Below, one piece after another: positions 9,159 to 55,560 of a stretch of DNA of 64,000 bases. Below the pieces are notes generated by a model. It did no database searches. It saw only the letters and a list, made by a program, of their open reading frames with translations, and was not told where the DNA came from. A program made the position numbers and the translations under genes. The stretch's first letter is position 1; every line of letters begins with the position of its first letter. Source of the DNA: Clostridiales bacterium (GTDB taxonomy: Bacteria; Bacillota; Clostridia; Christensenellales; UBA3700). The stretch spans positions 5,925 to 69,924 of the forward strand of contig JAAVHQ010000004.1 in the NCBI GenBank assembly GCA_014799645.1. The letters run 5' to 3'.

Positions 9159-9198
9159 GTTTTTCTCTGGACTTCGTGCGTAGGGTACGGTATTGTTT
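9159..9198 (+). promoter_or_regulatory. Conserved promoter-like element, short form (copy D).
   Basis: GTTTTTCTCTGGACTT-N13-TACGGTATTGTT, i.e. TGGACT-17 nt-TATTGT. Same architecture and spacing as the copy at 28826-28862. Confidence 0.55.
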
Positions 9199-9651: not shown

Positions 9652-9676
9652 TTGAAAATTCTTTCAAAATTCTTTC

Positions 9677-9775
9677 GTTTTTCTACGCAATTTCGCTGGG
9701 CTCTTGTGTGTTTTTACGGTATTGTTGTGTTGTAAAACAAAAGAGGCAAGCGCCTCAAAAAGGAGAACACGCAAC
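9677..9775 (+). promoter_or_regulatory. Conserved promoter + 5' leader element, long form (copy A).
   Basis: GTTTTTCTACGCAATTTCGCTGGGCTCTT...TACGGTATTGTTG (TGGGCT-17 nt-TATTGT), then ACAAAA, hairpin GAGGC-aagc-GCCTC, and AAGGAG. Confidence 0.6.
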
Positions 9776-12756: not shown

Positions 12757-12783
12757 AGCCTAAATATTTCATAAAAAATGTGT

Positions 12784-12880
12784 GTTTTTCTACGCAATTT
12801 CGCTGGGCTCTTTGACTTGTTTACGGTATTGTTGTAGTAGAAAACAAAACAAGGGCAAGCCGCCCAAAAAGGAGAGAAAA
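12784..12880 (+). promoter_or_regulatory. Conserved promoter + 5' leader element, long form (copy B).
   Basis: Near-identical to copy A over GTTTTTCTACGCAATTTCGCTGGGCTCTT and TTACGGTATTGTTGT. Hairpin here is GGGC-aagcc-GCCC, then AAGGAG. Confidence 0.6.
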
Positions 12881-14886: not shown

Positions 14887-14903
14887 TTATGAAAAAAACT
14901 TGT

Positions 14904-14998
14904 GTGTTTCTACGCAATTTCACTGGGCTCTTTGAAGTAATTACGGTATTGTTGTAATAGAAAACAAAACAAGGGAAACAACCCGAAGGAGACACAAA
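14904..14998 (+). promoter_or_regulatory. Conserved promoter + 5' leader element, long form (copy C).
   Basis: GTGTTTCTACGCAATTTCACTGGGCTCTT...TTACGGTATTGTTGT. Hairpin GGG-aaacaa-CCC, then GAAGGAG. Confidence 0.6.
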
Positions 14999-21499: not shown

Positions 21500-22411
21500 A
21501 TGGATAAACTTTTTATAATAGGCAATGGCTTTGATAGTGCGCATAATTTTCCAACAAAATACAAACATTTTCGAAAATACTTAATTAAAGAATACGACAA
21601 CCCTTATAGTTACATTCCAGAGGAGGCAATAGGACCAGATGGCGAGACCGCTAACTATAGACACGTTGCAGGGCTATTAATAAATTTGTTTGATGGCTAT
21701 TACAATGATGAAGATTGGGGAGATGTTGAGGCCGCTTTGCCAGACCTTGATTATAGACAATTCTTAGAAGATGTCAACATGGAGAATGATGATAGAAATA
21801 TATACCATACAATATACTCAAATGAAGACGCGATTAATAATTTGGGAACATGTATGCCAATAATGAAAGAACTTATTCACGAATGGCTTGAGACGGTTGT
21901 GATTAATGCAAATACGAAGAAAGCATTCCCAAATTTAATTGACAAAGATGGGATTGTCTTAACGTTTAATTACACTGATACATTAGAAAAAGTGTATAAA
22001 ATCAATCCTAAAAACATTTGTCACATTCATGGTATGATTGGGCAAGATATCGTATTTGGTCATGGCAAAATAGATAATTTGCTTGAAGGGGCGTATAGTA
22101 GGTACTTTATATCAGAGGTCAAACTACAAGATGTAATTAACTCTATGTTAAAAGACGTTGACGGCTGTATAGCAAAGCATAGTACATTTTTTGTCAATCT
22201 ATCCAAAGAACCAATTCGGGATATCTATTCAATAGGCTTCTCTTTTGCGAATGTCGATTTGGAATATATAATTGAAATTTGTAGAAGAATAGATACATCC
22301 AGTGTTGTTTGGCACTTGACTCAATTTGATAAAAGCAAAGGCAACATTAAAAGATTTGAACAAGTAATTAGAGGTTGCGGATTTAAAGGAACATTCGGTC
22401 AATTAATTTAA
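21500..22411 (+). CDS. AbiH-family abortive-infection-like protein.
   Basis: N-terminus MDKLFIIGNGFDSAHNFPTKYKHF, plus FNYTDTLEKVY and CHIHG blocks as in lactococcal AbiH-family proteins. AT-rich, with its own promoter and terminator. Confidence 0.75.
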   Translation: MDKLFIIGNGFDSAHNFPTKYKHFRKYLIKEYDNPYSYIPEEAIGPDGETANYRHVAGLLINLFDGYYNDEDWGDVEAALPDLDYRQFLEDVNMENDDRNIYHTIYSNEDAINNLGTCMPIMKELIHEWLETVVINANTKKAFPNLIDKDGIVLTFNYTDTLEKVYKINPKNICHIHGMIGQDIVFGHGKIDNLLEGAYSRYFISEVKLQDVINSMLKDVDGCIAKHSTFFVNLSKEPIRDIYSIGFSFANVDLEYIIEICRRIDTSSVVWHLTQFDKSKGNIKRFEQVIRGCGFKGTFGQLI

Positions 22412-28825: not shown

Positions 28826-28862
28826 TTTTTCTCTGGACTTTGAATTTTTATTACGCTATTGT
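28826..28862 (+). promoter_or_regulatory. Conserved promoter-like element, short form (copy E), upstream of the recombinase genes.
   Basis: GTTTTTCTCTGGACTT-N13-TTACGCTATTGTT: TGGACT (28834-28839), 17 nt, TATTGT (28857-28862). Collinear with copy D. Confidence 0.5.
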
Positions 28863-28863
28863 T

Positions 28864-28944: not shown

Positions 28945-30438
28945 ATGGTAAAGAAAAAGGCAGTAGCATACATAAGAGTATCAACTCAAAGCGATGCACA
29001 ATTACATAGTTTCGAATACCAGGTTGATTATTGGAAAAATACCATAAACGAAATAGATGGCTGCGAATATGTAGGTATATATGCAGATAAAGGAATAAGT
29101 GGCAAAGCGTTGGCAAAAAGACCGCAACAACTAAAGTTGATTGCGGACGCAAGGATGCATAAGTTTGATATGGTATTTACTAAATCCGTATCGAGATTCG
29201 CTCGTAATACTGAAGAGTTGCTAGAAATCGTGAGAGAGTTACGCGAACTAGGAATAAAAATATGGTTTGAGAAAGAGCAGATAGACACATTCAATCCATC
29301 GGCAGAGACATATCTCATAATAGCGGCATCAATAGCAGAGAACGATTTGAAAATATATTCGGAGAATATGAAGTGGTCTATTCGCCAGCGATACAAGAAA
29401 GGTTGGATATCTATAGGCAATGGGATGTTCGGCTATAGAATGATCGAAGGAACAAACGATTTGGAAATAGTCCCAGACGAAGCCGATACGGTAAGACGAA
29501 TATATGAGCTTTACCTGGAAGGGCGAGGATTAAAGACCATAGCGGACATATTAAAGAAAGAAAATAGAAAGAATAAGTCGGGCGAAATAGATTGGAACTT
29601 GCGGACCATAAGTTATGTATTATCTAATGAAAAGTACAAGGGATGCGTACTAAATCAAAAAAGAGTCGTTAACCTTGGCGTCTATGAGATAAATAACAAC
29701 TTAGCGCCTAAATATTATATGGAAGGTACGCACGAAGCAATTATCTCCCCAGATGTTTTTGATAAGGTACAAAGGGAACTCGAAAGACGAACCAACGTAA
29801 GGCTAAAAGGCGGACATGTTCCAAGTTATGGATTTTCAAAGTTAGTGCAATGCGCAGTCTGTAAAAAGGCTGCGTTTGCTCATAAAATACAGAATTGTGG
29901 AAAGCCTTGGCAAACTGAAATATGGGTATGTCAAAACCAAAACCTTCATGGGATTAAGAGTTGCTCAAATAAGCGAATCAAGGATACGGTGCTGAAAGAG
30001 AAGTTCGTTGAATGCTATAACGAATTTATAACGCACCACCTAGACAATGATAAATTAAAAGTTCTTAAGAACAAATTAACAGAACTAGTTAATGCGGAAA
30101 GAGAACTGAAAATGTTATATGTCAATCGCATGCTAAATAGCGAAGACTACAAAAAGGAAAATACAAATATTCGGAATGAGATTGCTTATATTAATGATCA
30201 AATTGCTGCAAATGAAATGCGAGGTTTATCTAGGTCGGATTATAAGCCAATAGAAGAGTATGATGAAGATAAAGTAAATAAATTTATAGAGTCGGTATCT
30301 ATAAACCATAGCATCGTATCATTCAAGTTTATTAATGGCGTGGAAATAAGTAGAGAGTTTACAAATGGTTCGCCAGGAAATAAAAAGGGATGGTATGAAC
30401 GCTACCTTGATCAACAAAGAAACAATACGGAGGTGTAA
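28945..30438 (+). CDS. Large serine recombinase 1.
   Basis: AVAYIRVSTQSD (catalytic Ser region), TKSVSRFARNTEE, a recombinase domain, Cys cluster CAVCKK...C, and a C-terminal coiled coil. 497 aa. Confidence 0.9.
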   Translation: MVKKKAVAYIRVSTQSDAQLHSFEYQVDYWKNTINEIDGCEYVGIYADKGISGKALAKRPQQLKLIADARMHKFDMVFTKSVSRFARNTEELLEIVRELRELGIKIWFEKEQIDTFNPSAETYLIIAASIAENDLKIYSENMKWSIRQRYKKGWISIGNGMFGYRMIEGTNDLEIVPDEADTVRRIYELYLEGRGLKTIADILKKENRKNKSGEIDWNLRTISYVLSNEKYKGCVLNQKRVVNLGVYEINNNLAPKYYMEGTHEAIISPDVFDKVQRELERRTNVRLKGGHVPSYGFSKLVQCAVCKKAAFAHKIQNCGKPWQTEIWVCQNQNLHGIKSCSNKRIKDTVLKEKFVECYNEFITHHLDNDKLKVLKNKLTELVNAERELKMLYVNRMLNSEDYKKENTNIRNEIAYINDQIAANEMRGLSRSDYKPIEEYDEDKVNKFIESVSINHSIVSFKFINGVEISREFTNGSPGNKKGWYERYLDQQRNNTEV

Positions 30439-30445
30439 CAGCACA

Positions 30446-32035
30446 ATGCCAATCGCAAAAAGAGTAGTAAAGGAAATACCTGCATTAAATCGCCAAAATG
30501 TGGCGGTAATAAGCAAAAAGGAAAATGTTACTTATTACGCAAGAGTTAGTACCGAAAATGAAGAACAGGAAGATTCTTACGAAAGACAAAAAGAACATTT
30601 CGAGCAGAAAATAAAAGCCTGCCCAGAATGGAATTATGTTGAAGGATACTCCGATTGGGGAGTAACGGGAACTAATGCAGAAGCTCGTAAAAATTTCATG
30701 CGAATGATAGCAGACTGCCGAGCAGGGAAAATCAATAAAATATTAGTGAAGTCAATATCAAGATTCGGTAGAAATACGGTCGACACACTAAAATACATAA
30801 GGGAATTAAAAGAGCTTGGAATCAGCATATACTTTGAAACACAAAACATAGATACATTGACTCCTGGCGGAGAAGTCCTTATAACAATACTTGCAGCAAT
30901 GGCAGAACAAGAAAGCAGAACAATGTCCACAAATATAAAATGGGCATATCAAAAGAGATTTAAAGATGGCAATGTGTTAATAAATTATACAGGTTCGCTT
31001 GGATATACAAAAGAAAATGACGAATATATCATAGTCGAGAAAGAGGCTGAAATAATACGAAGAATTTATAGAGAATACTTAACAGGCAAGTCATTACGTC
31101 AAATTGCCGAAGGCTTAAATGAAGAAGGCATAACTACAAAGCGAGGATACAAATGGCATCCTAATAGTATAGAAGGGGTGCTGGATAATGAGCGATACAC
31201 GGGTAACGCTATACTAGGCAAATCGTTCAAGGCAGATGTGTTAAGTAAAAGTCGCCAAAAGAATGAAGGGCAAGCGCCAATGTACTATGTGGAGAATAGT
31301 CACCCAGCGATAATAAGCCAAGAAATATTCGATATGGCAAAAGCGGAGAGATTACGCAGAGTGGAGTTAAGAAGTTCGGTAAAAACAGGAAATGGTAGAT
31401 ATAGTAGCAGATATCCATTTAGCGGACTCCTAGTATGCTCAAAGTGCGGAGGTAAGTTTAGGAGATTCGGCAGAAAAATTGCAAGTGGGGAGTTTGTCCC
31501 AACATGGATATGTGTAACGCATCAGAAACACCCAGAAATATGCGATATGCTACCTATCAAAGAGAGAGACTTGGAAAATGCATATAAAACTGCTGTAGAG
31601 CGATTTTTGGGCAATGTCGAAGAGGTTAACGATATGATAATGAAAACAATCGAAGACGAAATATTAATCGAACGTGAGACCGATTTGACAGCCGTACAAC
31701 AATCTATCGAAGTAGCGCAACAAGACATATTAGAGTTATTCCAAAGACGACGCCGAAACGAAATAACGATAGATGAATACGAGCAACAATATACTGCCAT
31801 TAGCACAAGAGTAGTAGATCTACAAGAACAAGAAGATAATCTCAAGGCTAATAAAGTAAGTAACCAAATCGCAAAGCGAAGGATGGATGAGATAAGAAAA
31901 GTATTGCAAGATGACCAAGTGGACTATATGGATGGAATGATAATGCGGTTGCTGTTGAATGATATTAAAATTATTAACAAAAAAGAAATAGAGTTTCAAT
32001 TCGAGAGTGGAGTGAAAATTCTATTAAAAGTATAA
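30446..32035 (+). CDS. Large serine recombinase 2.
   Basis: Start moved to the ATG at 30446. YYARVSTENEEQ, VKSISRFGRNTVD, CSKCGGKF...C zinc ribbon, and a coiled-coil tail. Confidence 0.9.
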   Translation: MPIAKRVVKEIPALNRQNVAVISKKENVTYYARVSTENEEQEDSYERQKEHFEQKIKACPEWNYVEGYSDWGVTGTNAEARKNFMRMIADCRAGKINKILVKSISRFGRNTVDTLKYIRELKELGISIYFETQNIDTLTPGGEVLITILAAMAEQESRTMSTNIKWAYQKRFKDGNVLINYTGSLGYTKENDEYIIVEKEAEIIRRIYREYLTGKSLRQIAEGLNEEGITTKRGYKWHPNSIEGVLDNERYTGNAILGKSFKADVLSKSRQKNEGQAPMYYVENSHPAIISQEIFDMAKAERLRRVELRSSVKTGNGRYSSRYPFSGLLVCSKCGGKFRRFGRKIASGEFVPTWICVTHQKHPEICDMLPIKERDLENAYKTAVERFLGNVEEVNDMIMKTIEDEILIERETDLTAVQQSIEVAQQDILELFQRRRRNEITIDEYEQQYTAISTRVVDLQEQEDNLKANKVSNQIAKRRMDEIRKVLQDDQVDYMDGMIMRLLLNDIKIINKKEIEFQFESGVKILLKV

Positions 32036-32044
32036 CGCAATAAG

Positions 32045-32073
32045 TTGTGTTTTTTTCATAGTTATGCTATAAT
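32045..32073 (+). promoter_or_regulatory. Sigma-70-type promoter with an extended -10, downstream of the recombinase genes.
   Basis: TTGTGT-17 nt (ending in TGC)-TATAAT at 32068-32073. Confidence 0.5.
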
Positions 32074-32182
32074 ATAAATACAAAGAATTTAAATGGGACG
32101 CAAACTATTTGCTACGGAAAAGAGAGTCATAGAAACTAATTAGAAGCCGAGAGTTTTTATGAATATTCTATTTGCAAATCAT

Positions 32183-32282
32183 AAAACGATTGATATTGTC
32201 CTAACCACTCTGCCTCGGTTCAGATTTCGTCACCCGCACACAAGTGTATTGGTCTAAAAGTATTCTAGCTTTCAGACCAATA
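32183..32282 (+). repeat. Cassette-end composite repeat, copy 1 (two half-repeats + GGTCTAAAAG hairpin).
   Basis: TGATATTGTCCTAACCAC...AGATTTCGTCACCCGCACACAAG, then ATTGGTCTAAAAG-tattctag-CTTTCAGACCAAT. Confidence 0.7.
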
Positions 32283-32416
32283 TTGTTATGTAATTTAGAC
32301 TAATTTTAGTTGTAATAATGTTTCAATTGTACTATTCTTGGTACATTTGGCCATTTACAATATCTTGAAAGTGTGCCATAATATAGAAAATACTATAAAG
32401 AAAGGAGACAAATTAT

Positions 32417-32692
32417 ATGTTTCATAGATCTTACTATACGAAAGAGGGATATAAACAAATCTATAGACCTAATAGTTCGGAAGCAAGAGAAACTGGATAT
32501 GCACCAGCACATCGTGTTATTGCGAGTAAAAAAATTGGAAGACCGTTATTGCCAAACGAAGTAGTACATCATATTGATGGCAACAAAAAAAACAATCGTC
32601 CTAAAAATTTGCAAGTAATGACTCGTGCCGAACATAATAATTTGCATGGATTAAATTTTAGGGGAAAGGGTAATAGACGTGGTCGCCATTGA
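32417..32692 (+). CDS. Small HNH endonuclease (91 aa).
   Basis: HHIDGNKKNNRPKNLQVMTRAEHNNLH. SD AAAGGAG. Confidence 0.8.
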   Translation: MFHRSYYTKEGYKQIYRPNSSEARETGYAPAHRVIASKKIGRPLLPNEVVHHIDGNKKNNRPKNLQVMTRAEHNNLHGLNFRGKGNRRGRH

Positions 32693-34337
32693 TGAATATA
32701 CACAAGAAAAAGATTGTATTTACAAACAAGAACATTATTCAGTTAGGGATAATGGTGCTGTTTTACGACATAATCCCAAAGGTCAAAACCCACGACCGTT
32801 AGATAATCAATGGACATTTGGCAAACTAAATGAAAAGACTGGTTATTTAGGAATAGCTTCAGTTCCTATACATAGGATAGTTGCTACTGCATTTCATGGC
32901 GAAGCGCCTACTAAACAACATGTCGTTGACCATATTGATACAAATAAGCATAACAATCGCCCAGAAAATCTAAGATGGTTAACAAGATTAGAGAATATAC
33001 TATTAAATCCAATAACAGCTAAAAGAATTGCAATGGTTTGTGGTAGTGTAGTAGCATTTTTAGAAAATCCCTCTAGGTATAGGGATGAATTTAAAGATCC
33101 AAATTATAGTTGGATGGGGAGAGTTAGCCAAGAGGAAGCAAAGGTTTGTTTGGAACATTTGTTGTCGTGGGCAGAAAGCGATAAGAAGCCATCAGGAGGT
33201 ACGTTGGGGGATTGGATATTTGAAAGAAATTCTAATAGGAATATAGAGAAAAAAGAAAACTTAAGTGCTACAGCAGATAAAGAGATAGTTGCCTCAAAGC
33301 AAGAATTACAAAAGGTAAGGACTAGGCAGGATATAAGGAGCAATCCGTTTGGTTTTGCTAGACCTGGCGAATCGGATATGGATAGTTCTATAGTTATGTA
33401 TAAAAAACGAGATGAACTATTTGATAAGATTAAAAAGAGGCTAGATTTTGACAAAAAGTTGAGATTCCCCGAAATCAAAGTACCTACGGCAGGTAAAGGA
33501 ATAACGATAAAAGAGTCTTGGATAGAAGAGATTCAGGACAGTGAAATTCACTACGAAATGACGAAAAGGTCGCCTAAATCTATAATTTTGCATTGTGCTG
33601 GCAAGTCGTTTGCGCTAATAGTTCAAGTGCAAACTAATATAGATACAAATGAGATAGGGAGACTAAAAAAAGAGGGTCTAAACATAGTCGTGATTGATTT
33701 TTCATGGGCAAAAAAAGGTGTCACAGTAGAAGAAATAAAATATATATTGGAAGATGATATCACTAAAAAGCGCTGGATATATCATGAAATGATTCAAAGA
33801 GAGGAAAAACGATTGCAGGATATTAGCGAGCCGATAAGTGACGCAGGGCAAGGAGTGTTACATTCTTATTATGCTTGTCCACTTATTTCAAATGGAGTTG
33901 AAGATGTTGAGTGTTGGTATTGTGATTATAGGATAAAGAGCAAAGATTACGCGCCTTATGATTATTGTTTTGCAAAGTCGGGTGTTCAAACTTATCAAGA
34001 CCTTTTATCTATTACAAACGTTGAAAAAGAAGACGGAAAAATAGTAAGTATTTCTTATAATAAAAACGGTGAAATGATTGTCAAAAAGTTTGACAAAGAA
34101 GTACAACTTCCTGGCAAAACAATGTTCCAATTATGGGGAGAAAGAACTACAGATAAATTGGTTTGTCACAACATATATAGTGATTGGTATGTTTTAATAG
34201 AAGAAAACCCTAAATTGAGTTATGAAAAAAATGAAAAAGTATATGGCAAATTGGGAAGGAATCTGCAAACTTTAGAGCATTGCGAAATGCGAGAAATTTT
34301 TGGTGCAGATAGTTGTTATTGGGAGACTATTAAATAG
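32679..34337 (+). CDS. Fusion protein: N-terminal NUMOD4/HNH_3-type endonuclease module and a ~430-aa C-terminal region of unknown function.
   Basis: YSVRDNGAVLRH, IHRIVATAFHG, VDHIDTNKHNNRPENLRWLTRLEN. C-terminal part has ALIVQVQTN...IVVIDFSW (possible PD-(D/E)xK-like) and a Cys cluster CPL...CWYCDY...C. Confidence 0.65.
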   Translation: MVAIDEYTQEKDCIYKQEHYSVRDNGAVLRHNPKGQNPRPLDNQWTFGKLNEKTGYLGIASVPIHRIVATAFHGEAPTKQHVVDHIDTNKHNNRPENLRWLTRLENILLNPITAKRIAMVCGSVVAFLENPSRYRDEFKDPNYSWMGRVSQEEAKVCLEHLLSWAESDKKPSGGTLGDWIFERNSNRNIEKKENLSATADKEIVASKQELQKVRTRQDIRSNPFGFARPGESDMDSSIVMYKKRDELFDKIKKRLDFDKKLRFPEIKVPTAGKGITIKESWIEEIQDSEIHYEMTKRSPKSIILHCAGKSFALIVQVQTNIDTNEIGRLKKEGLNIVVIDFSWAKKGVTVEEIKYILEDDITKKRWIYHEMIQREEKRLQDISEPISDAGQGVLHSYYACPLISNGVEDVECWYCDYRIKSKDYAPYDYCFAKSGVQTYQDLLSITNVEKEDGKIVSISYNKNGEMIVKKFDKEVQLPGKTMFQLWGERTTDKLVCHNIYSDWYVLIEENPKLSYEKNEKVYGKLGRNLQTLEHCEMREIFGADSCYWETIK

Positions 34338-34344
34338 TGTTCCA

Positions 34345-34446
34345 AAATCGATAGATTTTGTCATACACACTATCGTAAATGCGAGATTTTGTAATATACA
34401 CACAAGTGTATCGGTCTAAAAGTCTTTTGACTATTAGACCTTTTTC
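34345..34446 (+). repeat. Cassette-end composite repeat, copy 2.
   Basis: AGATTTTGTCATACACAC-13 nt-AGATTTTGTAATATACACACAAG, then GGTCTAAAAGTC-tttt-GACTATTAGACC and TTTTT. Confidence 0.75.
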
Positions 34447-34527
34447 TTGATAATTTGAGCAAACCTTCAATTGAAGAGATATGATTAAGCTTAAATATAT
34501 TTATATTTGTATAATTTTATAAAATAA

Positions 34528-34556
34528 TTGATTTAATTTATGTTTTTTGCTATAAT
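34528..34556 (+). promoter_or_regulatory. Strong sigma-70-type promoter of the Mrr/helicase/DarT/ARH cassette.
   Basis: TTGATT-17 nt (ending in TGC)-TATAAT, 30 nt upstream of the Mrr ATG. Confidence 0.6.
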
Positions 34557-34585
34557 TTAAAAGAAAATTCGTATCGAGGTGTAGC

Positions 34586-35467
34586 ATGGCAGTTAAAGTA
34601 CCGACATTTGATAGTTTGATTAATCCTTGTTTTATGGCAATTAAAGCATTGGGTGGCTCAGCGTCCAATGACGAAATATATGATGAGGTTGTAAGGCAGT
34701 TGGCATTATCTGAAACCGTATTAGCGGTACAACAACCCGGTCATTTGGCGATGTCAAAAGTTGCTTATAACCTTGCGTGGGCACGTACGTATTTGAAAAA
34801 ATTTGGTGCTATTATTAATACTACACGTTCAATTTGGACAATTACTTCGGAATTTTCTGACGTCAAAGATGTTGACGCTCGTAAAGTTGTTGAATTTGTT
34901 AGAAATTTGGAAGCACAGTCTACAAACAAAAAGGCTCAACTAGAACAAAGAAAAATAGAGAAGGATTTAGTAGTCAGCGAAGATGAACAACCCGAAGAAA
35001 TTTCTTCGTGGCGAATTCGGATGTTGGAAATATTGCAGAATATGAATCCTTATGGATTTGAGCGATTTGTTCAATTACTGTTACGTAATTGCGGAATTGA
35101 TAATGTAGAAGTGACAAAGAAATCTGGTGATGGTGGTATTGACGGTACAGGACAATACAAATTAAGTGGCATTTTTAGTTTTAAACTTGCTTTTCAATGC
35201 AAAAGATATATTGGGAATGTTGGAAGTGGGGAAATAAGAGATTTCCGTGGTTCACTTTCAACGGATATTGAAAAAGCAATTTTTGTAACTACGGGAAATT
35301 TTAGTCCTGCTGCGAAAAGCGAAGCAAAGGCGCCGGGGAAGAAGTCGATAGATTTGATGGATGGTGAAATGCTCATTGACAAAATAGCTGAGTTGAAATT
35401 GGGAGTTTCACCTAAAACAGTATACGAAATAGATGACAAGTTCTACGCACAATATAACGAAGCGTAA
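34586..35467 (+). CDS. mrr: Mrr-type (type IV, modification-dependent) restriction endonuclease.
   Basis: N-terminal winged-helix-like Mrr_N (MAIKALGGSASNDEIYDEV). C-terminal catalytic core GDGGIDGTGQYKL...FQCKRY...IRDFRGSL. Confidence 0.8.
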   Translation: MAVKVPTFDSLINPCFMAIKALGGSASNDEIYDEVVRQLALSETVLAVQQPGHLAMSKVAYNLAWARTYLKKFGAIINTTRSIWTITSEFSDVKDVDARKVVEFVRNLEAQSTNKKAQLEQRKIEKDLVVSEDEQPEEISSWRIRMLEILQNMNPYGFERFVQLLLRNCGIDNVEVTKKSGDGGIDGTGQYKLSGIFSFKLAFQCKRYIGNVGSGEIRDFRGSLSTDIEKAIFVTTGNFSPAAKSEAKAPGKKSIDLMDGEMLIDKIAELKLGVSPKTVYEIDDKFYAQYNEA

Positions 35468-35573
35468 GTATTGTTGAAATCGCTAAAAAGCTGACTAGGG
35501 GTATCTTATTTGTGGTCAGCTAATATGTATTATAGGAAGTAAAATGAAAAAGTAAGACATCATAGCATTTATC

Positions 35574-37046
35574 TTGAAATTAGTGAAAGAATATGATAAA
35601 ATATGTAAAACAGTATTTAACGCATTTGGAGAAATATTTTTAATGGAACCTAAAGGGAAGCAAAAAGATGTAGTTGATTTACCAGATAGTGGGCATTTCG
35701 TTGTACTAGGAACTGCAGGGAGTGGCAAAACTACGATGGCGCTTTTGAGAGCGAAGCATTTGGGAATTAAGTATCCTAATGCTTGCATTTTGCTTGTTAC
35801 TTTTAATAGAGCGCTTATTTCTTATATGAAGAACCTAGGACTTAAGATGCCTACAAATGTTAATATAGAAAATTATCATCATTTTGCGCGCGGATATCTT
35901 AATAGTCGAAGTAAAATGAATTTCAATTGTATTATTGATACAAATGAAAAGGAAAGTCTCGTAAGTGAAATTCTACTTGAATTTAGGAGCGCAAATCCTC
36001 AAATATCAACGTATAATCGTCCTGCAGAAGATTTTTTCAGCGAAATAATCTTTATTCAGCAACAAGGCTTATCGGAATTGGAGTATCTTACAAAAGAGAG
36101 AATTGGGCGGGCTTCAGTAAATATTAGAAAAGAGAATCGTAAGTATTTTTACGAAGTGTATAAAGAATATATGTATAGACGGAGACTGCTTGGTAAGCTA
36201 TATGATTGGGATGATATTGCTTCGGCAGTATTGGATGAGTTTAAGATAGATTTATCAAGCCGAAAATATATGCATGTAGTGTTGGATGAGGGGCAGGATT
36301 TTTCGCCGCAAATGTTACGTTCGCTTATTGCTGCGATTCCACAAGAAGGAAGTTTTATATTTTTTGGTGATGTTAACCAACAAATTTATGGAAGCAGATT
36401 GTCATGGCGAGATGCAGGAATCAACATAAATCAATCGACTATTTGGCGGTTTAAGGATAATTTTAGAAACAGTTATGAAATATCTGCATTCGCATCTGCG
36501 CTTACAGAAAGTGAATATTGGCAAAAATCTGAAGATGCAGTTCTACCAGCAACGTCGCGTGCGGCAGGGCCATTGCCTGCTGTTATGCATTTTGACAATG
36601 AGAGTTTTGAAATAAAAACAGTTTGCGAATTAGCTCAAAAGCAAGCGATTTCGGCAACAGTTGCGATAATTGTTCGCGATAGGACTGATGTTGCAAGAAT
36701 TACTTCTTTAACTCGAAAAGCCAAAGAAATAAAAAGCGATAAGATTATAGACTATTCATCTCCCGGTGTTTATGTAACTACATACCATTCGGCTAAGGGG
36801 TTAGAGTTTGATTATGTGTTTGTACCATTGTTGAGTTCAGACTATTTACCAAGCAAAGAAAAAGTAGAATTAATGCCTAACAATAAAATAGAGATATTTG
36901 GGGATGAAATCAAATATTTGTATGTAGCTGTTACGCGAGCAAAGTATGGTTTATTTTTGTCGTATTCAGGAATGCCATCATGCTTTATTCCGAAAGTTAA
37001 AGGCATATTTAATTTTAAGTATATGGGTGGAGATAGCAACAGATGA
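35574..37046 (+). CDS. SF1 (UvrD-like) helicase / P-loop ATPase.
   Basis: GTAGSGKTT, VVLDEGQDFSP, TYHSAKGLEFDYVFVP and LYVAVTRAK. Start uncertain: TTG at 35574 or ATG at 35643 behind GGAGA. Confidence 0.8.
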   Translation: MKLVKEYDKICKTVFNAFGEIFLMEPKGKQKDVVDLPDSGHFVVLGTAGSGKTTMALLRAKHLGIKYPNACILLVTFNRALISYMKNLGLKMPTNVNIENYHHFARGYLNSRSKMNFNCIIDTNEKESLVSEILLEFRSANPQISTYNRPAEDFFSEIIFIQQQGLSELEYLTKERIGRASVNIRKENRKYFYEVYKEYMYRRRLLGKLYDWDDIASAVLDEFKIDLSSRKYMHVVLDEGQDFSPQMLRSLIAAIPQEGSFIFFGDVNQQIYGSRLSWRDAGININQSTIWRFKDNFRNSYEISAFASALTESEYWQKSEDAVLPATSRAAGPLPAVMHFDNESFEIKTVCELAQKQAISATVAIIVRDRTDVARITSLTRKAKEIKSDKIIDYSSPGVYVTTYHSAKGLEFDYVFVPLLSSDYLPSKEKVELMPNNKIEIFGDEIKYLYVAVTRAKYGLFLSYSGMPSCFIPKVKGIFNFKYMGGDSNR

Positions 37047-37720
37047 GAATAGCATATGAGGTTTTGTTGAATCATAATGTGAATAGGTTATGTCATTTTA
37101 CAAGATTTGTAACGCTAAAACATATTTTGGGAAGTGACGATGGAATTAAGGCACGCAATTTCGTAGATGGATTAGTGTCACGGCCTACGGATGGTGAAAG
37201 GTTTGATAGGGAAGAAGATTATATTTGTTGCTCAGTCGAATATCCCAACACTTGGTATTTGGACAAAGTTCGCAATGATGACCCCATTTTCAAAGAATGG
37301 GCGGTTTTGTGTATTGATCCAAAGGCTCTATTAAATGCAACAGTTAAGTATAGTGCGTGTAATGCTGCTAGAGAATGTGGTGCTTATGTACATGATGAAT
37401 CTTATGCTATCTCAGAACTGTATAATTCTCGATCGGTATTAGGATTTGAACGCTCAAGTGATATGTTGAAGTGCTGTCCTACAGACGGACAAAGCGAAAT
37501 ATTATTATATAAGAATATTCCGCGACAATATATAACTGGGATTTTATTGCGTTCTGAAAATGCTGCAAAACAATTAATAGTGAGCTTTAAAACGTTAGAG
37601 ATATCAGATACAGTTATTCCTCAAATATGGATAGCTCCTGAAGTTTTTGAGAAAAAAACTTGGAGTAATCTGGCGCGAATCGGGAAGCGACCAGAAGAAA
37701 AAATATATCGGAGGTTCTAA
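37043..37720 (+). CDS. DarT-like (DUF4433-like) ADP-ribosyltransferase candidate.
   Basis: Ordered blocks LCHFTR, DYICCSVEYPNTWYL, YSACNAA, QSEILLYKNIPRQYITGILL. ATGA overlap with the helicase stop. Confidence 0.6.
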   Translation: MRIAYEVLLNHNVNRLCHFTRFVTLKHILGSDDGIKARNFVDGLVSRPTDGERFDREEDYICCSVEYPNTWYLDKVRNDDPIFKEWAVLCIDPKALLNATVKYSACNAARECGAYVHDESYAISELYNSRSVLGFERSSDMLKCCPTDGQSEILLYKNIPRQYITGILLRSENAAKQLIVSFKTLEISDTVIPQIWIAPEVFEKKTWSNLARIGKRPEEKIYRRF

Positions 37721-37722
37721 TT

Positions 37723-39255
37723 ATGTCAATTTTATATAACGATAAATGTACTGGAGCTTTGCTTGCGGCAGCAATAGGTGATGCATTAGGATGGCCATTT
37801 GAGACTCGCGCAGGAAATAAGTGTAAAAAACCTGTTGCTAATGGACAATTCCAAACATGGACAAGGCAGTCTGGAGGACGATTTTGGTCACACACCGAGA
37901 CAATAGAGCGTGGTGAATACAGCGATGATACGCAGCTATTACTTGCTGTTGCTCGCAGTCTTCAATATGGAGATAAATGGAATCAATATTTTGTTAGGCA
38001 AGAATTACCATTTTGGTTGTCCTATGAACGTGGTGGTGGCAATGCCATTAAGACGGCGGCAAGATTTTGGGAAAGGCACGGATGTCCTTGGAGCGAAACA
38101 AACGATTCAAAGGACGTTATAGCTTATTTCAATGCTGGGGCAAACGGCGTCGCTATGCGTATATTGCCGCACGTTATATATGGATTGGCTGATGATGATG
38201 TTGATTCATTGATGTCGGTGGTTATAAGAAACGGTATGTACACTCACGGACATCCGCGTGCTTTGCTTGGCGCCACATGTTACGCTTACGCGCTATATAT
38301 TGCAGGAAGAAAAACTGATTCTCTTGAATATGGTGAACTTGTTGATGCTGTATTGCAAGGACAAAGATACTGGGGTAAATTTCATAACGTGCTTCCAGAA
38401 TGGATTGAAATTGGAAGCAAATCTTTACGAAGTGATTATATGTTTTTGTGGGAGGATACTGCAAGACAAATATGCGAAAACTTAAGACGAATGCAAACGG
38501 CTTTACAATCAGGGCTTTTGGATAATAGTGAAGAATTTTTAAAATCTATAGGCTGTTTTTCACCTGCAACGAATGGCGCAGGTGATGTAAGCGCATTAAC
38601 TGCAATCTACCTTGCATCTAAATATGCGGCAAATCCAAAACAGGGTATTATGGTAGCAGCTTATCTAAAGAACTCAGATACAGATACAAACGCTTCAATG
38701 ACAGGGGCTCTCTTGGGAATGATACAGGGTGTAGATTGGATTCCTTACGAATGGCAAAAAGTACAAGACAATGAATATATATTAGAATTGTCGAATAAAT
38801 TGTTGCAACATAGAGAAGATTCTATAGCATATACGAATAGCCAGCAAAATAATATCCAAGTACCAATCGGTAGTATATTTCCAATAGAACAGCCAAAGAA
38901 ATGTCGTGGTTCAAATTATACTGTTACTATTCAAAAATATAAGACCGCATGGGGACAGACGCTTTATATAAAAAACTTCGATAAAAATAAAAACAAGCAA
39001 GAAGTTGAACAGTTGTCTTTTGATTTTAAGGAACTTCAATCAATCGAATCGGGACATACTCAAAAAGCTATAAACAATGATGTTTTATTAATTTTGCAAG
39101 AATTGTTGTATATTGATAAAAAGATGTCATTGCCAAAACTTGTTAAAATTTTGTCATTAATTTTGTCTACGGACTTATTAGATTCAGAAATTGCGGCACA
39201 AACGAAAACTAAAGAGAAAACTGTAACAAAAATTCGTGAAAATTGTCACAAATAA
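37723..39255 (+). CDS. ADP-ribosylglycohydrolase (ARH/DraG fold) with a ~170-aa C-terminal extension.
   Basis: GALLAAAIGDALGWPFE, YSDDTQLLLAVARSL, SDTDTNASMTGALLGMIQG. SD GGAGG lies inside the end of the previous ORF. Confidence 0.85.
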   Translation: MSILYNDKCTGALLAAAIGDALGWPFETRAGNKCKKPVANGQFQTWTRQSGGRFWSHTETIERGEYSDDTQLLLAVARSLQYGDKWNQYFVRQELPFWLSYERGGGNAIKTAARFWERHGCPWSETNDSKDVIAYFNAGANGVAMRILPHVIYGLADDDVDSLMSVVIRNGMYTHGHPRALLGATCYAYALYIAGRKTDSLEYGELVDAVLQGQRYWGKFHNVLPEWIEIGSKSLRSDYMFLWEDTARQICENLRRMQTALQSGLLDNSEEFLKSIGCFSPATNGAGDVSALTAIYLASKYAANPKQGIMVAAYLKNSDTDTNASMTGALLGMIQGVDWIPYEWQKVQDNEYILELSNKLLQHREDSIAYTNSQQNNIQVPIGSIFPIEQPKKCRGSNYTVTIQKYKTAWGQTLYIKNFDKNKNKQEVEQLSFDFKELQSIESGHTQKAINNDVLLILQELLYIDKKMSLPKLVKILSLILSTDLLDSEIAAQTKTKEKTVTKIRENCHK

Positions 39256-39281
39256 AATATTCTTGTGTTAAATTAGTTGGG

Positions 39282-39372
39282 TATAGATTTTGTCATACAC
39301 ACATTTCAAAACGATAGATTTCGTAATATACACACAAGAATAACGGTCTAAAAGTCGGAAGACTTTTAGACC
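39282..39372 (+). repeat. Cassette-end composite repeat, copy 3.
   Basis: AGATTTTGTCATACACAC-13 nt-AGATTTCGTAATATACACACAAG, then the perfect hairpin GGTCTAAAAGTC-ggaa-GACTTTTAGACC. Confidence 0.75.
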
Positions 39373-39525
39373 ATGTTTCTTTATATAGTTAGTTGGAGAC
39401 AACAATTTCTAATATATAATATAAATTAGAATTAATATTGATAAATTATTATCATTGTGATAATATGTAAATATTAAGATGGGTAATGTCGAAAATCGAC
39501 TATACGTTTTGAAAGGAATCATCTA

Positions 39526-40428
39526 ATGAACAAAATGGAAAACGACAAAGGATATGATAAAGAATTAGACTATCTTGATCTAGATGACGAACTTGATCAA
39601 GATGGCAACATATTGCCGGAAAAGACAGAGTTGACGGAAGATTTAATCAGCGGAGACAAAGACGCAAAAAAAATCGTAGAGTCATTATATAAAAATCTAA
39701 GTTTCGCATATGGTATTTATGAACCACAACACCTTCTAGGAGCGTTGAAATATTTATCGTATTCAGTATCAATATTGTTTTTTCTAACGAGTATATTTTT
39801 AGTCGTTTCTATGCTGGTGATAAGAATAGATCGATCTCAAATTCCAATGATGGTAGCTCCGGCAATATTATGTTTATTTTTCGGGATATTTTCTATGTAT
39901 TTTTTTATAACAAGAGATCAAGCCCGAAAAGTATGGTGGTATAAAGATTCGAAAAAAACTATAGCAATATATAAGTCTGCGAGAAAATCGGAAGAAAGTG
40001 ATATTATTATATACGTAAATAAGAATTATCAATACCGTTATTATCACAAAAAGCAGGAGTGGAAGAAGAATAGGTCGCAGTGTATGGATACGAGATTGTT
40101 ATTCAAGCATCTAAACGGCAAATTGAGAATAGAAAATCATAAGAACGGTGACGTGGAGATATATACGCGCAATCCATCCTTGTATTCATTTTACAACGAA
40201 GAAGCCAAGCAAAAATCTGCAAGTATATTAATTCGTGATGGGATTCCTAATTATATTGAGCATTGGTATGACTCGGCAGAACAAGGTAGAAGTAACGTGA
40301 GCGAACGTTTTGAATTTCTTGAAATCAACACTGATAGATACGTAGAAATACCAAAATCATTTATTACGTTTTGTCAAGTGCAAAGAATAGAGCCATTACA
40401 AGAAAATGAACATTTACGTTATGTATAA
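39526..40428 (+). CDS. Membrane protein of unknown function (acidic N-terminus, two TM segments). May be phage cargo or host.
   Basis: 300 aa. YLSYSVSILFFLTSIFLVVSMLVI and MVAPAILCLFFGIFSMYFFI. AT-rich. Confidence 0.5.
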   Translation: MNKMENDKGYDKELDYLDLDDELDQDGNILPEKTELTEDLISGDKDAKKIVESLYKNLSFAYGIYEPQHLLGALKYLSYSVSILFFLTSIFLVVSMLVIRIDRSQIPMMVAPAILCLFFGIFSMYFFITRDQARKVWWYKDSKKTIAIYKSARKSEESDIIIYVNKNYQYRYYHKKQEWKKNRSQCMDTRLLFKHLNGKLRIENHKNGDVEIYTRNPSLYSFYNEEAKQKSASILIRDGIPNYIEHWYDSAEQGRSNVSERFEFLEINTDRYVEIPKSFITFCQVQRIEPLQENEHLRYV

Positions 40429-54465: not shown

Positions 54466-54561
54466 TTTCTATTGAAAGCAAGAACAAACCGTAGTCCTTG
54501 CTTTTTCATTACTGTTTTGCTATAATGAAATCGCGATAAACAGTAACTTGTAGGCGAGTAT

Positions 54562-55041
54562 ATGAAACAAGATTCAAACAAAACAAACGTAATGAGAATA
54601 TTGGATCATAAAAAAGTAAAATATGAAAGTCATTATTATACGGATACCGACGCTATAAGCGGTATAGAAGTAGCTACCGTGTTGGGACAAAATCCAAATC
54701 AAGTTTTTAAAACTTTAGTTACAATAGGAAAGACGAAAGAGAATTACGTTTTTCTAGTTCCCGTTAATCAAGAATTAGATTTAAAGAAAGCGGCTAATGT
54801 AGTAAAAGAAAAAAATATCGAAATGATAAAGTCAAAAGAATTATTACCGTTAACAGGTTATATACACGGAGGGTGTTCTCCGATAGGTATGAAAAAACAG
54901 TTTAAAACGATAATTGATGCATCTGCTCAAAATTTCCAAACAATCATTTTCAGCGGAGGAAAAATCGGTTATCAAGTGGAAGTATCATTAGATGATTTAA
55001 AAAAGGTTATTACTTTTGATATAAAAGATATAATAAAATAA
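54562..55041 (+). CDS. ybaK: Cys-tRNA(Pro) deacylase YbaK.
   Basis: 159 aa. TNVMRILDHKKVKY, FKTLV, GGCSPIGMKKQF. Confidence 0.85.
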   Translation: MKQDSNKTNVMRILDHKKVKYESHYYTDTDAISGIEVATVLGQNPNQVFKTLVTIGKTKENYVFLVPVNQELDLKKAANVVKEKNIEMIKSKELLPLTGYIHGGCSPIGMKKQFKTIIDASAQNFQTIIFSGGKIGYQVEVSLDDLKKVITFDIKDIIK

Positions 55042-55102: not shown

Positions 55103-55148
55103 GTCTATGATGAACAAAATAGGGGATAGCCGAAGTCGGGACTTGTAC

Positions 55149-55457
55149 CTATAAACTATTTAAAAATGCGTTTAAGAGTTCTTTTTGTTCTGCTGTAAGA
55201 GAGGAAAGTTTATCGGAAGTTCTTTTTTCTGAATTTCCTTTTGTACTAAAAAATTCTTCGATTGATATTCCTAATCCCCAACAAATGTGGTCAAGATATT
55301 CTATCGTAGGGCTCTTTTCGCCTTTTTCTAATTGATATATATAAGTAGGCGAAACGCCTGCGCTATTTGCTAAAGCATTTTGAGTTAATTTTTTTGCTTC
55401 ACGTAAACTTTTTATACGTTTTGCAACGTCAAATTTATCCATAAATATATCCGCCAA
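55149..55457 (-). CDS. XRE-family HTH regulator, likely the RM controller (C) protein.
   Basis: LTQNALANSAGVSPTYIYQLEKGEKSPT. Divergent from the methyltransferase gene, with palindromic boxes between them. Confidence 0.75.
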   Translation of the reverse strand: MADIFMDKFDVAKRIKSLREAKKLTQNALANSAGVSPTYIYQLEKGEKSPTIEYLDHICWGLGISIEEFFSTKGNSEKRTSDKLSSLTAEQKELLNAFLNSL

Positions 55458-55560
55458 ACATAACTATAGTTATAGTATATGTACTATAGTTATGTTTTAT
55501 TAAAACTATGGTGTTGACTATTTTAAACTATTGTGTTATCATAGTATCACTATAATTGAA
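55457..55560. promoter_or_regulatory. C-box-like operators and divergent promoters of the RM island.
   Basis: 14-bp perfect inverted repeat AACATAACTATAGT / ACTATAGTTATGTT. Five ACTATnGT/ACTATAAT boxes. TTGACT-17 nt-TATCAT. Confidence 0.6.

Follow-up and report, generated by a model that had tools for sequence, protein, structure and literature searches.

The repeated element and its locus

The locus analysed here is a 64,000-nucleotide stretch of a Clostridiales genome (assembly GCA_014799645.1, contig JAAVHQ010000004.1, positions 5,925 to 69,924, also Logan contig SRR11425446_104; hereafter the window), in which a 95-nt element recurs three times on the plus strand behind a prophage. The prophage, with replication, packaging, tail and holin genes, extends to ∼ 28.7 kb. 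At its right end, downstream of phage tail, lysis and holin genes, lie two plus-strand genes for large serine recombinases of 497 aa (28945-30438) and 529 aa as called (30446-32035), each with Pfam Resolvase, Recombinase and Zn_ribbon_recom domains. Element copy 1 (32189-32283) is followed by a first cargo module (32417-34337) encoding two HNH_3 proteins of 91 aa (32417-32692) and 552 aa (32679-34337; Pfam, PADLOC homing-endonuclease model). Copy 2 (34351-34445) is followed by a second (34586-39255; Pfam, PADLOC), which comprises a Mrr-type restriction endonuclease (34586-35467), a UvrD-like helicase (35583-37046), DarT (37043-37720) and an ADP-ribosylglycohydrolase (ARH; 37723-39255); PADLOC holds no model for DarT or ARH. 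Copy 3 (39283-39377) precedes a gene for a 300-aa protein (39526-40428), which matched no Pfam or PADLOC family, and ordinary-looking host genes (thioesterase, glutathione peroxidase, MarR, FeoAB). The stack therefore runs from the prophage and its two serine recombinases through the HNH module and the Mrr-helicase-DarT-ARH module to the following genes. All cargo is co-oriented, in modules of two to four genes, and each module has a promoter-like plus-strand site ahead of it; a consensus scan gave TTTACA-17-CATAAT with TG before the HNH_3 genes (32354-32382), TTGATT-17-TATAAT with TG before the Mrr gene (34528-34556) and TTGATA-17-TAATAT with TG before the 300-aa gene (39438-39466).

A repeat search of the window aligned the three copies without gaps; with copy 2 as the reference of the family, copy 1 is 66% and copy 3 80% identical, and the three-way alignment contains no indels within the element. 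Each copy consists of half-repeat 1, half-repeat 2 (AGATTTYGTAATATACAC) running into ACAAG, six variable bases and a hairpin, GGTCTAAAAGT...AGACC. The segment CACACAAG lies between the half-repeats and the hairpin, which begins GGTCTAAAAG in each copy. Half-repeats occupy 32191-32208 and 32222-32239 in copy 1, 34353-34370 and 34384-34401 in copy 2, and 39285-39302 and 39316-39333 in copy 3, a start-to-start spacing of 31 nt in all three. The half-repeat module of copy 1 (32191-32244) is composed of TGATATTGTCCTAACCAC and AGATTTCGTCACCCGCAC plus ACAAG, its second repeat resembling a tRNA 3' end, and those of copies 2 (34353-34406) and 3 (39285-39338) both open with AGATTTTGTCATACACAC and continue 31 nt on with AGATTTTGTAATATACAC and AGATTTCGTAATATACAC, respectively, again plus ACAAG. 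The hairpins lie at 32251-32278 (GGTCTAAAAGTATTCTAGCTTTCAGACC; z = -3.1 for the minimum free energy structure), 34413-34440 (GGTCTAAAAGTCTTTTGACTATTAGACC; z = -3.7; to 34448 with its T-run) and 39345-39372 (GGTCTAAAAGTCGGAAGACTTTTAGACC; a perfect 12-bp stem, z = -5.7, terminator-like on both strands). Their 5' arm GGTCTAAAAGT is the same in all three copies; the loop and the 3' arm vary.

The half-repeat pattern has five exact matches in the window, all within the three copies, and eight with up to three mismatches, against 1.75 ± 1.46 in shuffled sequences (eight or more in none of 100). GGTCTAAAAGT with at most one mismatch has seven matches, against 1.22 ± 1.07 (seven or more in none of 100). 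Read from the sequence, a short dyad, TACAC-AA-GTGTA, lies at the junction CACACA↓AG, the arrow marking the point between half-repeats and hairpin; the three copies have neither terminal inverted repeats across the whole element nor target-site duplications. A first-pass annotation of this DNA had already placed three indel-free copies within a few bases of these positions, directly 3' of the recombinase pair, the HNH pair and the Mrr-helicase-DarT-ARH block, and had described two direct half-repeats ∼ 31 nt apart followed by a hairpin with an invariant 5' arm and differing loops. All of this is confirmed.

Among all copies considered, in the window and in the related genomes described below, the hairpin folds with z = -3 to -7 and a T-run follows. 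The inner stem varies, with compensatory pairs in some cases and mismatches in others. The outer 7-10 bp of the stem are constant across genera and behind unrelated upstream genes, including three tRNA genes; the left arm is invariant and the right arm tolerates mismatches. Copy 3 satisfies a terminator scan on both strands, and copies 1 and 2 fold alike but with stem mismatches or a weaker T-run. The hairpin is thus credible as a predicted intrinsic terminator. Since a plain terminator does not require a sequence-constant outer stem, the hairpin may in addition be recognized as DNA. The half-repeat region shares no structure beyond the terminal hairpin (RNAalifold, single-sequence folds), and a conserved RNA structure was rejected for it; in the consensus, pairing is limited to the terminal hairpin of 28 nt and a minor stem of 5 bp, the 55 nt upstream being unpaired direct repeats. 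Its 31-nt spacing is kept in nearly all copies across genera (32 nt in one) and corresponds to about three helical turns, which would suit two protein protomers on one face of the DNA; most likely, a recombinase or an accessory protein would bind the half-repeats as phased sites. The constant outer stem and the phasing across genera bear out the earlier view that the element is more than a plain terminator.

Copy 1 had been described as the more diverged copy. It is not simply diverged: in a junction-anchored register, 12-13 of 19 positions of its second half-repeat agree with tRNA 3' ends (p about 1e-4 to 6e-4). No other copy is significant in this test, and unanchored local alignment of the half-repeats against four tRNAs is not significant for any copy, so that an origin of the half-repeats as decayed tRNA 3' ends was retained for copy 1 alone. 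This copy has the appearance of a tRNA-like arm fused to the hairpin and may be compared with a true tRNA-hairpin junction in a related locus (L084, below), and such a repeat would be expected if this seam derives from a site of that kind. Concerted evolution of the half-repeats within a copy was not used as an argument (identity ∼ 12-13 of 18 within a copy, 11 of 18 across copies). A strong extended -10 sequence, TGCTATAAT, lies at ∼ 32066-32074, ∼ 110 nt before copy 1; together with the copy-1 hairpin it could define a non-coding transcript of ∼ 200 nt that holds the diverged half-repeats (32060-32280).

Two separable halves in related genomes

Full copies of the element occur in at least eight other genomes, and it is thus not confined to the window. 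Carriers are Anaerocaecibacter muris and Pumilibacter intestinalis (both Pumilibacteraceae), a Christensenella metagenome-assembled genome (MAG) and other Clostridia MAGs. A scan of one genome per species with the pattern CACACAAG-N6-GGTCTAAAAG returned 10 loci, seven of them with the full element (L002, L004, L005, L008 with two copies, L009, L010 and L011), the half-repeats being present although they form no part of the pattern. At every one of these loci the element lies directly 3' of a same-strand gene. The upstream gene encodes AIPR (L002), Shedu SduA with WYL and a BpuSI-type restriction-modification enzyme (L011), RtcB (L009), a 202-aa HEAT-repeat protein (L004/L068, L010/L071, L069), an alpha/beta hydrolase (L008) or an FtsX fragment (L005). 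The downstream genes are mutually unrelated (HNH, Mrr, a protein without a known family, recombinase, GNAT, glyoxalase). A covariance model, R1, built from 11 copies detected additional partial copies in L004, where single genes consequently have a copy on either side. The composite pattern gave one or two sites per matched genome, and within ∼ 1.1 Mb of collected loci the hairpins are restricted to the arrays.

Searches of other collections were negative. Two patterns found no similar DNA in IMG/VR, where the sole hairpin match (L116) is a chance match inside coding-like sequence; BLAST did not find the element among INPHARED phages or PLSDB plasmids, and a phage or plasmid origin was rejected on these grounds. 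A pattern scan of JGI metagenomes gave chance matches only. Rfam returned no match over the whole window at the gathering threshold or over 31900-39600 at E ≤ 1, and a literature search for strings of the element met only unrelated primers.

In several relatives the two halves of the element occur apart. In L004/L068 the 3' end of tRNA-Leu(cag), ...CCGCACCA, passes directly into AGTGTAATGG plus the hairpin, with no half-repeats between. L068 continues with a promoter-like sequence, the HEAT gene, a full element, the same promoter, a glyoxalase gene and a last copy, which keeps both half-repeats, ends ...TTACACACA and gives way to unrelated sequence with a different terminator. L069 follows the same plan behind tRNA-Val(gac), where AGTGTAATGG and the hairpin come next to CCA; over the 130 nt downstream of CCA the two loci are almost identical. 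A third tRNA gene, truncated, stands in L084 before AATCAATC plus the hairpin and an HNH_3-WYL-...-helicase-DarT-ARH island. At the other end, half-repeats without this hairpin close the arrays before unrelated terminators (L068 11252-11385; L069 6077-6175). Both L068 and L069 hence read tRNA, then twice the series hairpin, cassette and half-repeats, then the native terminator. Short tRNA-arm-like fragments near array ends (L068 11300-11385, L084 190-215), such as ...GAGTTTGAACCCTCTGCGTTAAACCA after the last L068 half-repeats and GGGGGATTCGAGTCCAC after the L084 hairpin, may be relics of earlier integrations.

We compared copies pairwise in three zones: the 60 nt before CACACA, the hairpin (45 nt) and the next 65 nt. 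L068a and L069a denote the copies after the two tRNAs, and L068b, L069b and L071 those after the HEAT gene. Behind the HEAT gene the first zone is 100% identical in all three pairings, with 78% in the hairpin and 77% beyond it for L068b and L069b, 91% and 55% for L068b and L071, and 80% and 57% for L069b and L071. The pattern is inverted for L068a and L069a, which follow different tRNAs (70%, 96% and 98% for the three zones in order), and for L068b and L008a (67%, 96% and 91%). From this identity switch, located at CACACA↓A(A/G), it follows that the half-repeats travel with the upstream cargo and the hairpin with what comes after it. The two halves assort independently, with their breakpoint at CACACA↓AG, and the element is the junction of two separable modules, in which the hairpin goes with a tRNA gene or with the cargo downstream. 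The single composite unit of the first-pass annotation has to be given up.

The nearest relative of the window array is L101. Its order is yabP, tRNA-Leu(cag), an IS3-family insertion, a 229-aa gene and an HNH_3 gene 88% identical to that of the window, followed by a truncated homologue of the 552-aa HNH gene with a hairpin fused to it, AIPR in place of Mrr-DarT and another hairpin. The cargo between copies thus differs in related genomes, as had been predicted, and an ordinary terminator with constant surroundings does not describe the element. The last ∼ 50 nt before the HNH_3 ATG of the window resemble the region upstream of the L101 HNH_3 gene by eye, with no alignment match. The IS3-family element of L101 (941-1000) lies directly after the tRNA-Leu sequence CCAAGTG, and the same four bases open the hairpin module elsewhere.

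Proposed origin of the seams

Recurrence with varied cargo, and breakpoints between blocks that fall inside the element, fit the accretion or exchange of defence cargo that had been suggested for it. We propose that modules acquired separately meet at each copy, which would be their seam, and that they are stacked in the manner of tandem accretion of integrase-less islands, an explanation that we prefer tentatively and would place just short of probable. The right half (∼ 40 nt: A(A/G)-N8, the hairpin GGTCTAAAAG...CTTTTAGACC and the T-run) would be the left end of the following module and would act as an intrinsic terminator for its upstream partner, in other genomes a tRNA gene. The left half (∼ 55 nt: two direct repeats of 18-23 nt, 31 nt apart, ending CACACA) would be the right end of the preceding module. 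The stacking site would lie immediately downstream of a tRNA gene or of an equivalent hairpin, modules being added serially with the newest next to the target gene end; each inner junction would then combine the right end of one module with the left end of the next, and the last right end would abut native sequence. Serial integration at a single site yields an anatomy of the kind observed. Composite staphylococcal cassette chromosome (SCC) islands provide a serine-recombinase analogue of tandem accretion. Tandem accretion with integrase-less cis-mobilizable elements (CIMEs) is an established process (PMC5704250). We infer that the seams were made by site-specific rather than by other recombination; the adjacent large serine recombinases are a weak candidate for the acting enzyme.

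A number of observations weigh against this proposal. Not every seam is clean: in L101 (3380-3475) the hairpin is fused inside the truncated HNH gene at a TATACAC microhomology, which speaks against a purely site-specific origin, and breakpoints vary in position, L004 and L010 diverging only past the hairpin. The invariance of CACACAAG and GGTCTAAAAG among the genome-scan matches is partly built in by the search pattern, and copies reached by other routes differ at these segments (CACACAAAG, CACGCAAG). In the scans L002, L005 and L009 had one composite copy each, at a gene 3' end and with no recognizable following module identified, and a simple 3' module would explain these loci equally well. 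In the window itself, a pattern scan found no half-repeats to the right of copy 3, so that a fourth module cannot be delimited, and no tRNA gene adjoins the array; a longer contig (75.7 kb) has neither a tRNA nor an element at the prophage side and stops short of the left end of the prophage. A related serine recombinase adjoins the element in just two of ∼ 10 loci, the window and L011, and R1 finds no copy at 15 viral loci with homologues of the window recombinases (39-77% identical). No tyrosine recombinase domain was present among the proteins scanned or annotated in the window, L002-L011, L067-L087 and L101, where part of each genome is visible. Exact look-ups of five window proteins returned the same arrangement only, with no copy in another context and no empty site.

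On balance unlikely, if not strongly so, is that the element is a conserved 3' transcription module, in which a terminator is combined with half-repeats that bind a regulator (acting as a roadblock, in termination or antitermination, or on RNA stability), insulates defence operons and has spread by ordinary or illegitimate recombination. Every copy does lie directly 3' of a same-strand gene, with a hairpin and T-run at its own end, each window copy has a promoter-like site downstream, and where the conserved hairpin is absent another terminator stands within 20-40 nt of the half-repeats. The single copies of L002, L005 and L009 and the breakpoints at differing nucleotides also fit a gene-end module. 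However, a terminator needs no outer stem of invariant sequence across genera, unrelated upstream genes and three tRNAs; the half-repeat region has no predicted conserved RNA structure and no Rfam match; selection on a single unit would not be expected to give so abrupt an identity change at CACACA↓AG; and 66-80% identity over 95 nt makes a poor substrate for homologous recombination.

The first-pass annotation tied the element to the adjacent tandem serine recombinases. It would then be an attachment (att)-type site used in an SCC-like manner, with copy 1 as the attR of the prophage and copies 2 and 3 as sites of cargo capture or exchange. The recombinase pair ends 150 nt before copy 1; in L011 a truncated related recombinase, 41% identical to recombinase 2, begins 263 nt past the element; the dyad TACAC-AA-GTGTA sits at CACACA↓AG; and the tRNA-like arm and hairpin of copy 1 are as expected of an attR formed at a tRNA-hairpin attB. 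Nevertheless we regard this version as clearly improbable. None of the 15 viral loci has the element, the seven of them that were scanned for repeats have none analogous, and the downstream sequences that were read contain nothing similar; the element was therefore rejected as a general feature of this recombinase family. Neither element nor hairpin occurs in the viral and phage collections, and most other element-bearing stretches with genes examined (2.4-20 kb each) have no serine recombinase beside the element. Serine-integrase att sites span ∼ 40-50 bp and are not known to have phased direct repeats, a layout unlike that of the half-repeats, and the attL of the prophage lies outside the available sequence. 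The link of the element to the adjacent serine recombinases is weak.

HNH_3 was likewise considered as a dedicated partner. The 91-aa HNH_3 family is found near the element in five loci (L011, L009, L069, L083/84 and L101); it also occurs in AAA/S8-protease/SMEK islands that lack the element and alone between housekeeping genes, so that a dedicated role was rejected. The element was not found at distant phage HNH loci. As an observation in its own right, this small family (84-91 aa, 61-88% identical to the product of window 32417-32692; L107 10001-10255, L094-L100) behaves like a free-standing selfish endonuclease gene.

Two further explanations are very improbable. A selfish short repeat of the repetitive extragenic palindromic (REP), miniature inverted-repeat transposable element (MITE) or Correia type, inserting near gene ends with incidental terminators, would account for a 28-nt near-palindromic hairpin with conserved arms at many gene ends and after tRNAs, but the copies are few and clustered (three in 64 kb, all within 7 kb; one or two composite sites per matched genome), have no whole-element terminal inverted repeats or target-site duplications, and come apart into halves at defined array starts and ends. 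An RNA device controlling the downstream gene, be it a small RNA or a repeat RNA of the type III antitoxin kind, is no more credible: two direct repeats before a terminator and then a defence or toxin-like gene recall the ToxI/ToxN layout, and the promoter-like TGCTATAAT precedes copy 1, but the downstream genes are mutually unrelated with no ToxN/AbiE-type partner, the repeats never exceed two, Rfam gives no match at E ≤ 1 and no conserved structure is predicted in the repeat region. Ends of the DDE (Tn7/Mu-like) type were also rejected; the right end closes in CA, but the left end lacks a conserved TG (AGAATAAC, AAGTTATA, AATCAATC) and a target duplication is absent.

Several features of the surrounding genes were recorded on the way. 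A second repeat family of up to 86 nt (TTTCnCTGGrCT...TACGGTATTGTT) lies inside the prophage at 9162-9197, 9666-9751, 12773-12858, 14893-14978 and 28828-28863. Its copies stand before gene blocks, the recombinase pair among them, and resemble a promoter or regulatory site specific to the phage; related viral contigs conserve the copy that precedes the recombinases. By annotation, an AbiH-family abortive-infection gene (21500-22411) lies amid the tail genes of the prophage and immediately precedes the tape-measure gene. The UvrD-like helicase, DarT and the ∼ 510-aa ADP-ribosylglycohydrolase (35583-39255) form a three-gene block that is conserved in several genomes and lacks Mrr in L083-L087; the glycohydrolase occupies the place expected for the macrodomain antitoxin DarG. 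A region with a helix-turn-helix gene (XRE-type; 55139-55556) is 84% identical to L005 4529-4945. In the window its neighbours are a type I restriction-modification locus and tRNA-Leu(caa), and in the Christensenella MAG L005 it lies directly downstream of an element copy.

Palindrome-bounded cassettes and known systems

The HEAT gene of L004, used as a query, led to a second kind of array in related MAGs. The 202-aa HEAT-repeat protein exists in two exact variants, P0001 and P0003, both of which have many different, unrelated surroundings (at least 11 for the two together). Among these are places behind two tRNAs and behind queF, a place between htpG and ispH, and others next to AraC, YoaP, DUF6194, adh_short and further genes. 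The boundaries of this cassette are precise to the nucleotide, on the left (C)GATAAA(CAGT or TTTC)AATTTA followed by ACGTAAAG... and on the right ...GTTTATCGAAAGTAACGATAAATTTCAATTTA followed by variable sequence. The bounding site is a palindrome of 16-20 bp (full site 20 bp, CGATAAATT-TC-AATTTATCG), with a variant, GATAAACAGTAATTTA, after promoters. In L067-L082 each of several consecutive promoterless open reading frames has a palindrome site after it (for example L079 1025, 1694 and 2174; L073 6957, 7626 and 8123; L068 10626 and 11199), and in ∼ 1.06 Mb of collected loci these sites are confined to such arrays, a few chance matches aside. The half-repeat, hairpin and promoter block lies between two palindrome sites, and in L074 a 201-aa resolvase is encoded ∼ 6 kb upstream of the cassette. 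No palindrome site is present near the three window copies. A platform-like match occurs in the window at 54535-54550, within a stretch (54500-54560, TTTTGCTATAATGAAATCGCGATAAACAGTAACTTG) that lies upstream of an open reading frame (54562-55041) and closely matches the promoter plus GATAAACAGTAATTTA 'platform' before the MAG cassettes.

From their sequences, the palindrome-bounded arrays look like an integron-like cassette system in Clostridia MAGs. It is conceivable, although on the whole doubtful, that gut Clostridia of the Pumilibacteraceae/Christensenellales kind own a new integron-like capture platform at tRNA genes. Such a platform would be made up of a hairpin terminator, a promoter and a short site, followed by promoterless cassettes ending in CGATAAATT-TC-AATTTATCG, each unit being closed by the phased half-repeats and units being stacked on one another. 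The window copies would then be unit seams, and the recombinase, not yet recognized, could be a serine recombinase acting in trans.

Defence genes cluster and turn over fast. To our knowledge, apart from integrons and a small number of hotspots in phages or satellites, few of the DNA signals that bound exchangeable defence modules have been described, especially in Gram-positive gut anaerobes. The element is a concrete, searchable marker of module seams in a poorly studied clade, with a reusable covariance model; it points to tRNA-proximal stacking as a route of island assembly, and it led to the arrays in which an identical single-gene cassette, its ends exact to the nucleotide, appears in at least 11 contexts. 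Given a dedicated recombinase, these arrays would amount to integron-like gene capture in Bacillota, from which new parts for site-specific recombination could be drawn. Without one, the element would still be a clear case of a sequence-conserved terminator or insulator module common to defence islands.

The element was also compared with other known classes. Like intrinsic terminators it has, by prediction, a GC-anchored stem-loop plus T-run directly 3' of genes; unlike them it has an outer stem conserved in sequence across genera and ∼ 55 nt of phased repeats upstream. With three clustered copies in 64 kb and one or two composite sites per matched genome, it differs from REP, bacterial interspersed mosaic element (BIME) or MITE families, which have many dispersed copies and either terminal inverted repeats or an associated REP-associated tyrosine transposase (RAYT) or other transposase. 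It also does not resemble a type III toxin-antitoxin (ToxIN-like) system, the downstream genes not being of the ToxN family and Rfam giving no match.

Integron arrays (attC; the Vibrio cholerae repeats, VCR, of Vibrio superintegrons) are alike in having a conserved repeat of ∼ 100 nt at the 3' end of each co-oriented cassette, and the cargo of the related loci (GNAT, glyoxalase, SnoaL, isochorismatase, defence genes) is typical of chromosomal integrons. They differ in that IntI was not found here, that the repeat consists of direct repeats and a terminator rather than a long imperfect hairpin, and that the window cassettes have predicted promoters of their own and can hold several genes. On reading the copies we saw no conserved R''/R' core sites (RYYYAAC / GTTRRRY). 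An integron was rejected, in agreement with the earlier statement that attC features are absent.

SCC islands (SCCmec, pseudo-SCC; CcrA/CcrB) likewise combine two tandem large serine recombinase genes with cassettes bounded by direct repeats, some of the cassettes having no recombinases, and paired large serine recombinases do lie next to the window array (28945-32035). SCC integrates at the 3' end of rlmH and has repeats of ∼ 15-18 bp and terminal inverted repeats. In contrast, the repeats described here are ∼ 95 nt long, bipartite and tied to tRNA ends in relatives, and homologous recombinases occur elsewhere without the element; among the 15 viral loci the repeat does not co-occur with the recombinase family. 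An SCC-like use of the enzymes of this locus is hypothetical.

The CIME arrays of ICESt1/ICESt3 in Streptococcus thermophilus also consist of integrase-less modules, flanked by repeated att-type sequences and arranged in head-to-tail order at the 3' terminus of a conserved gene; their inner junctions resemble reconstituted attachment sites, and a recombinase-bearing element (here the prophage) stands at one end (PMC5704250). Integrase-less modules between repeats, in tandem at a target gene end, are found in the window (the HNH and Mrr-DarT modules between copies), in L068 and in L069. The modules described here differ in being of 2-5 kb or a single gene with mostly defence functions, in their anchor at the very end of tRNA genes and in a junction with a terminator hairpin of conserved sequence, and they are known from sequence, with no cognate integrase identified. 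By analogy, the arrays resemble CIME or SCC-type accretion most closely in their probable working, and integron arrays with near-identical attC sites in their layout.

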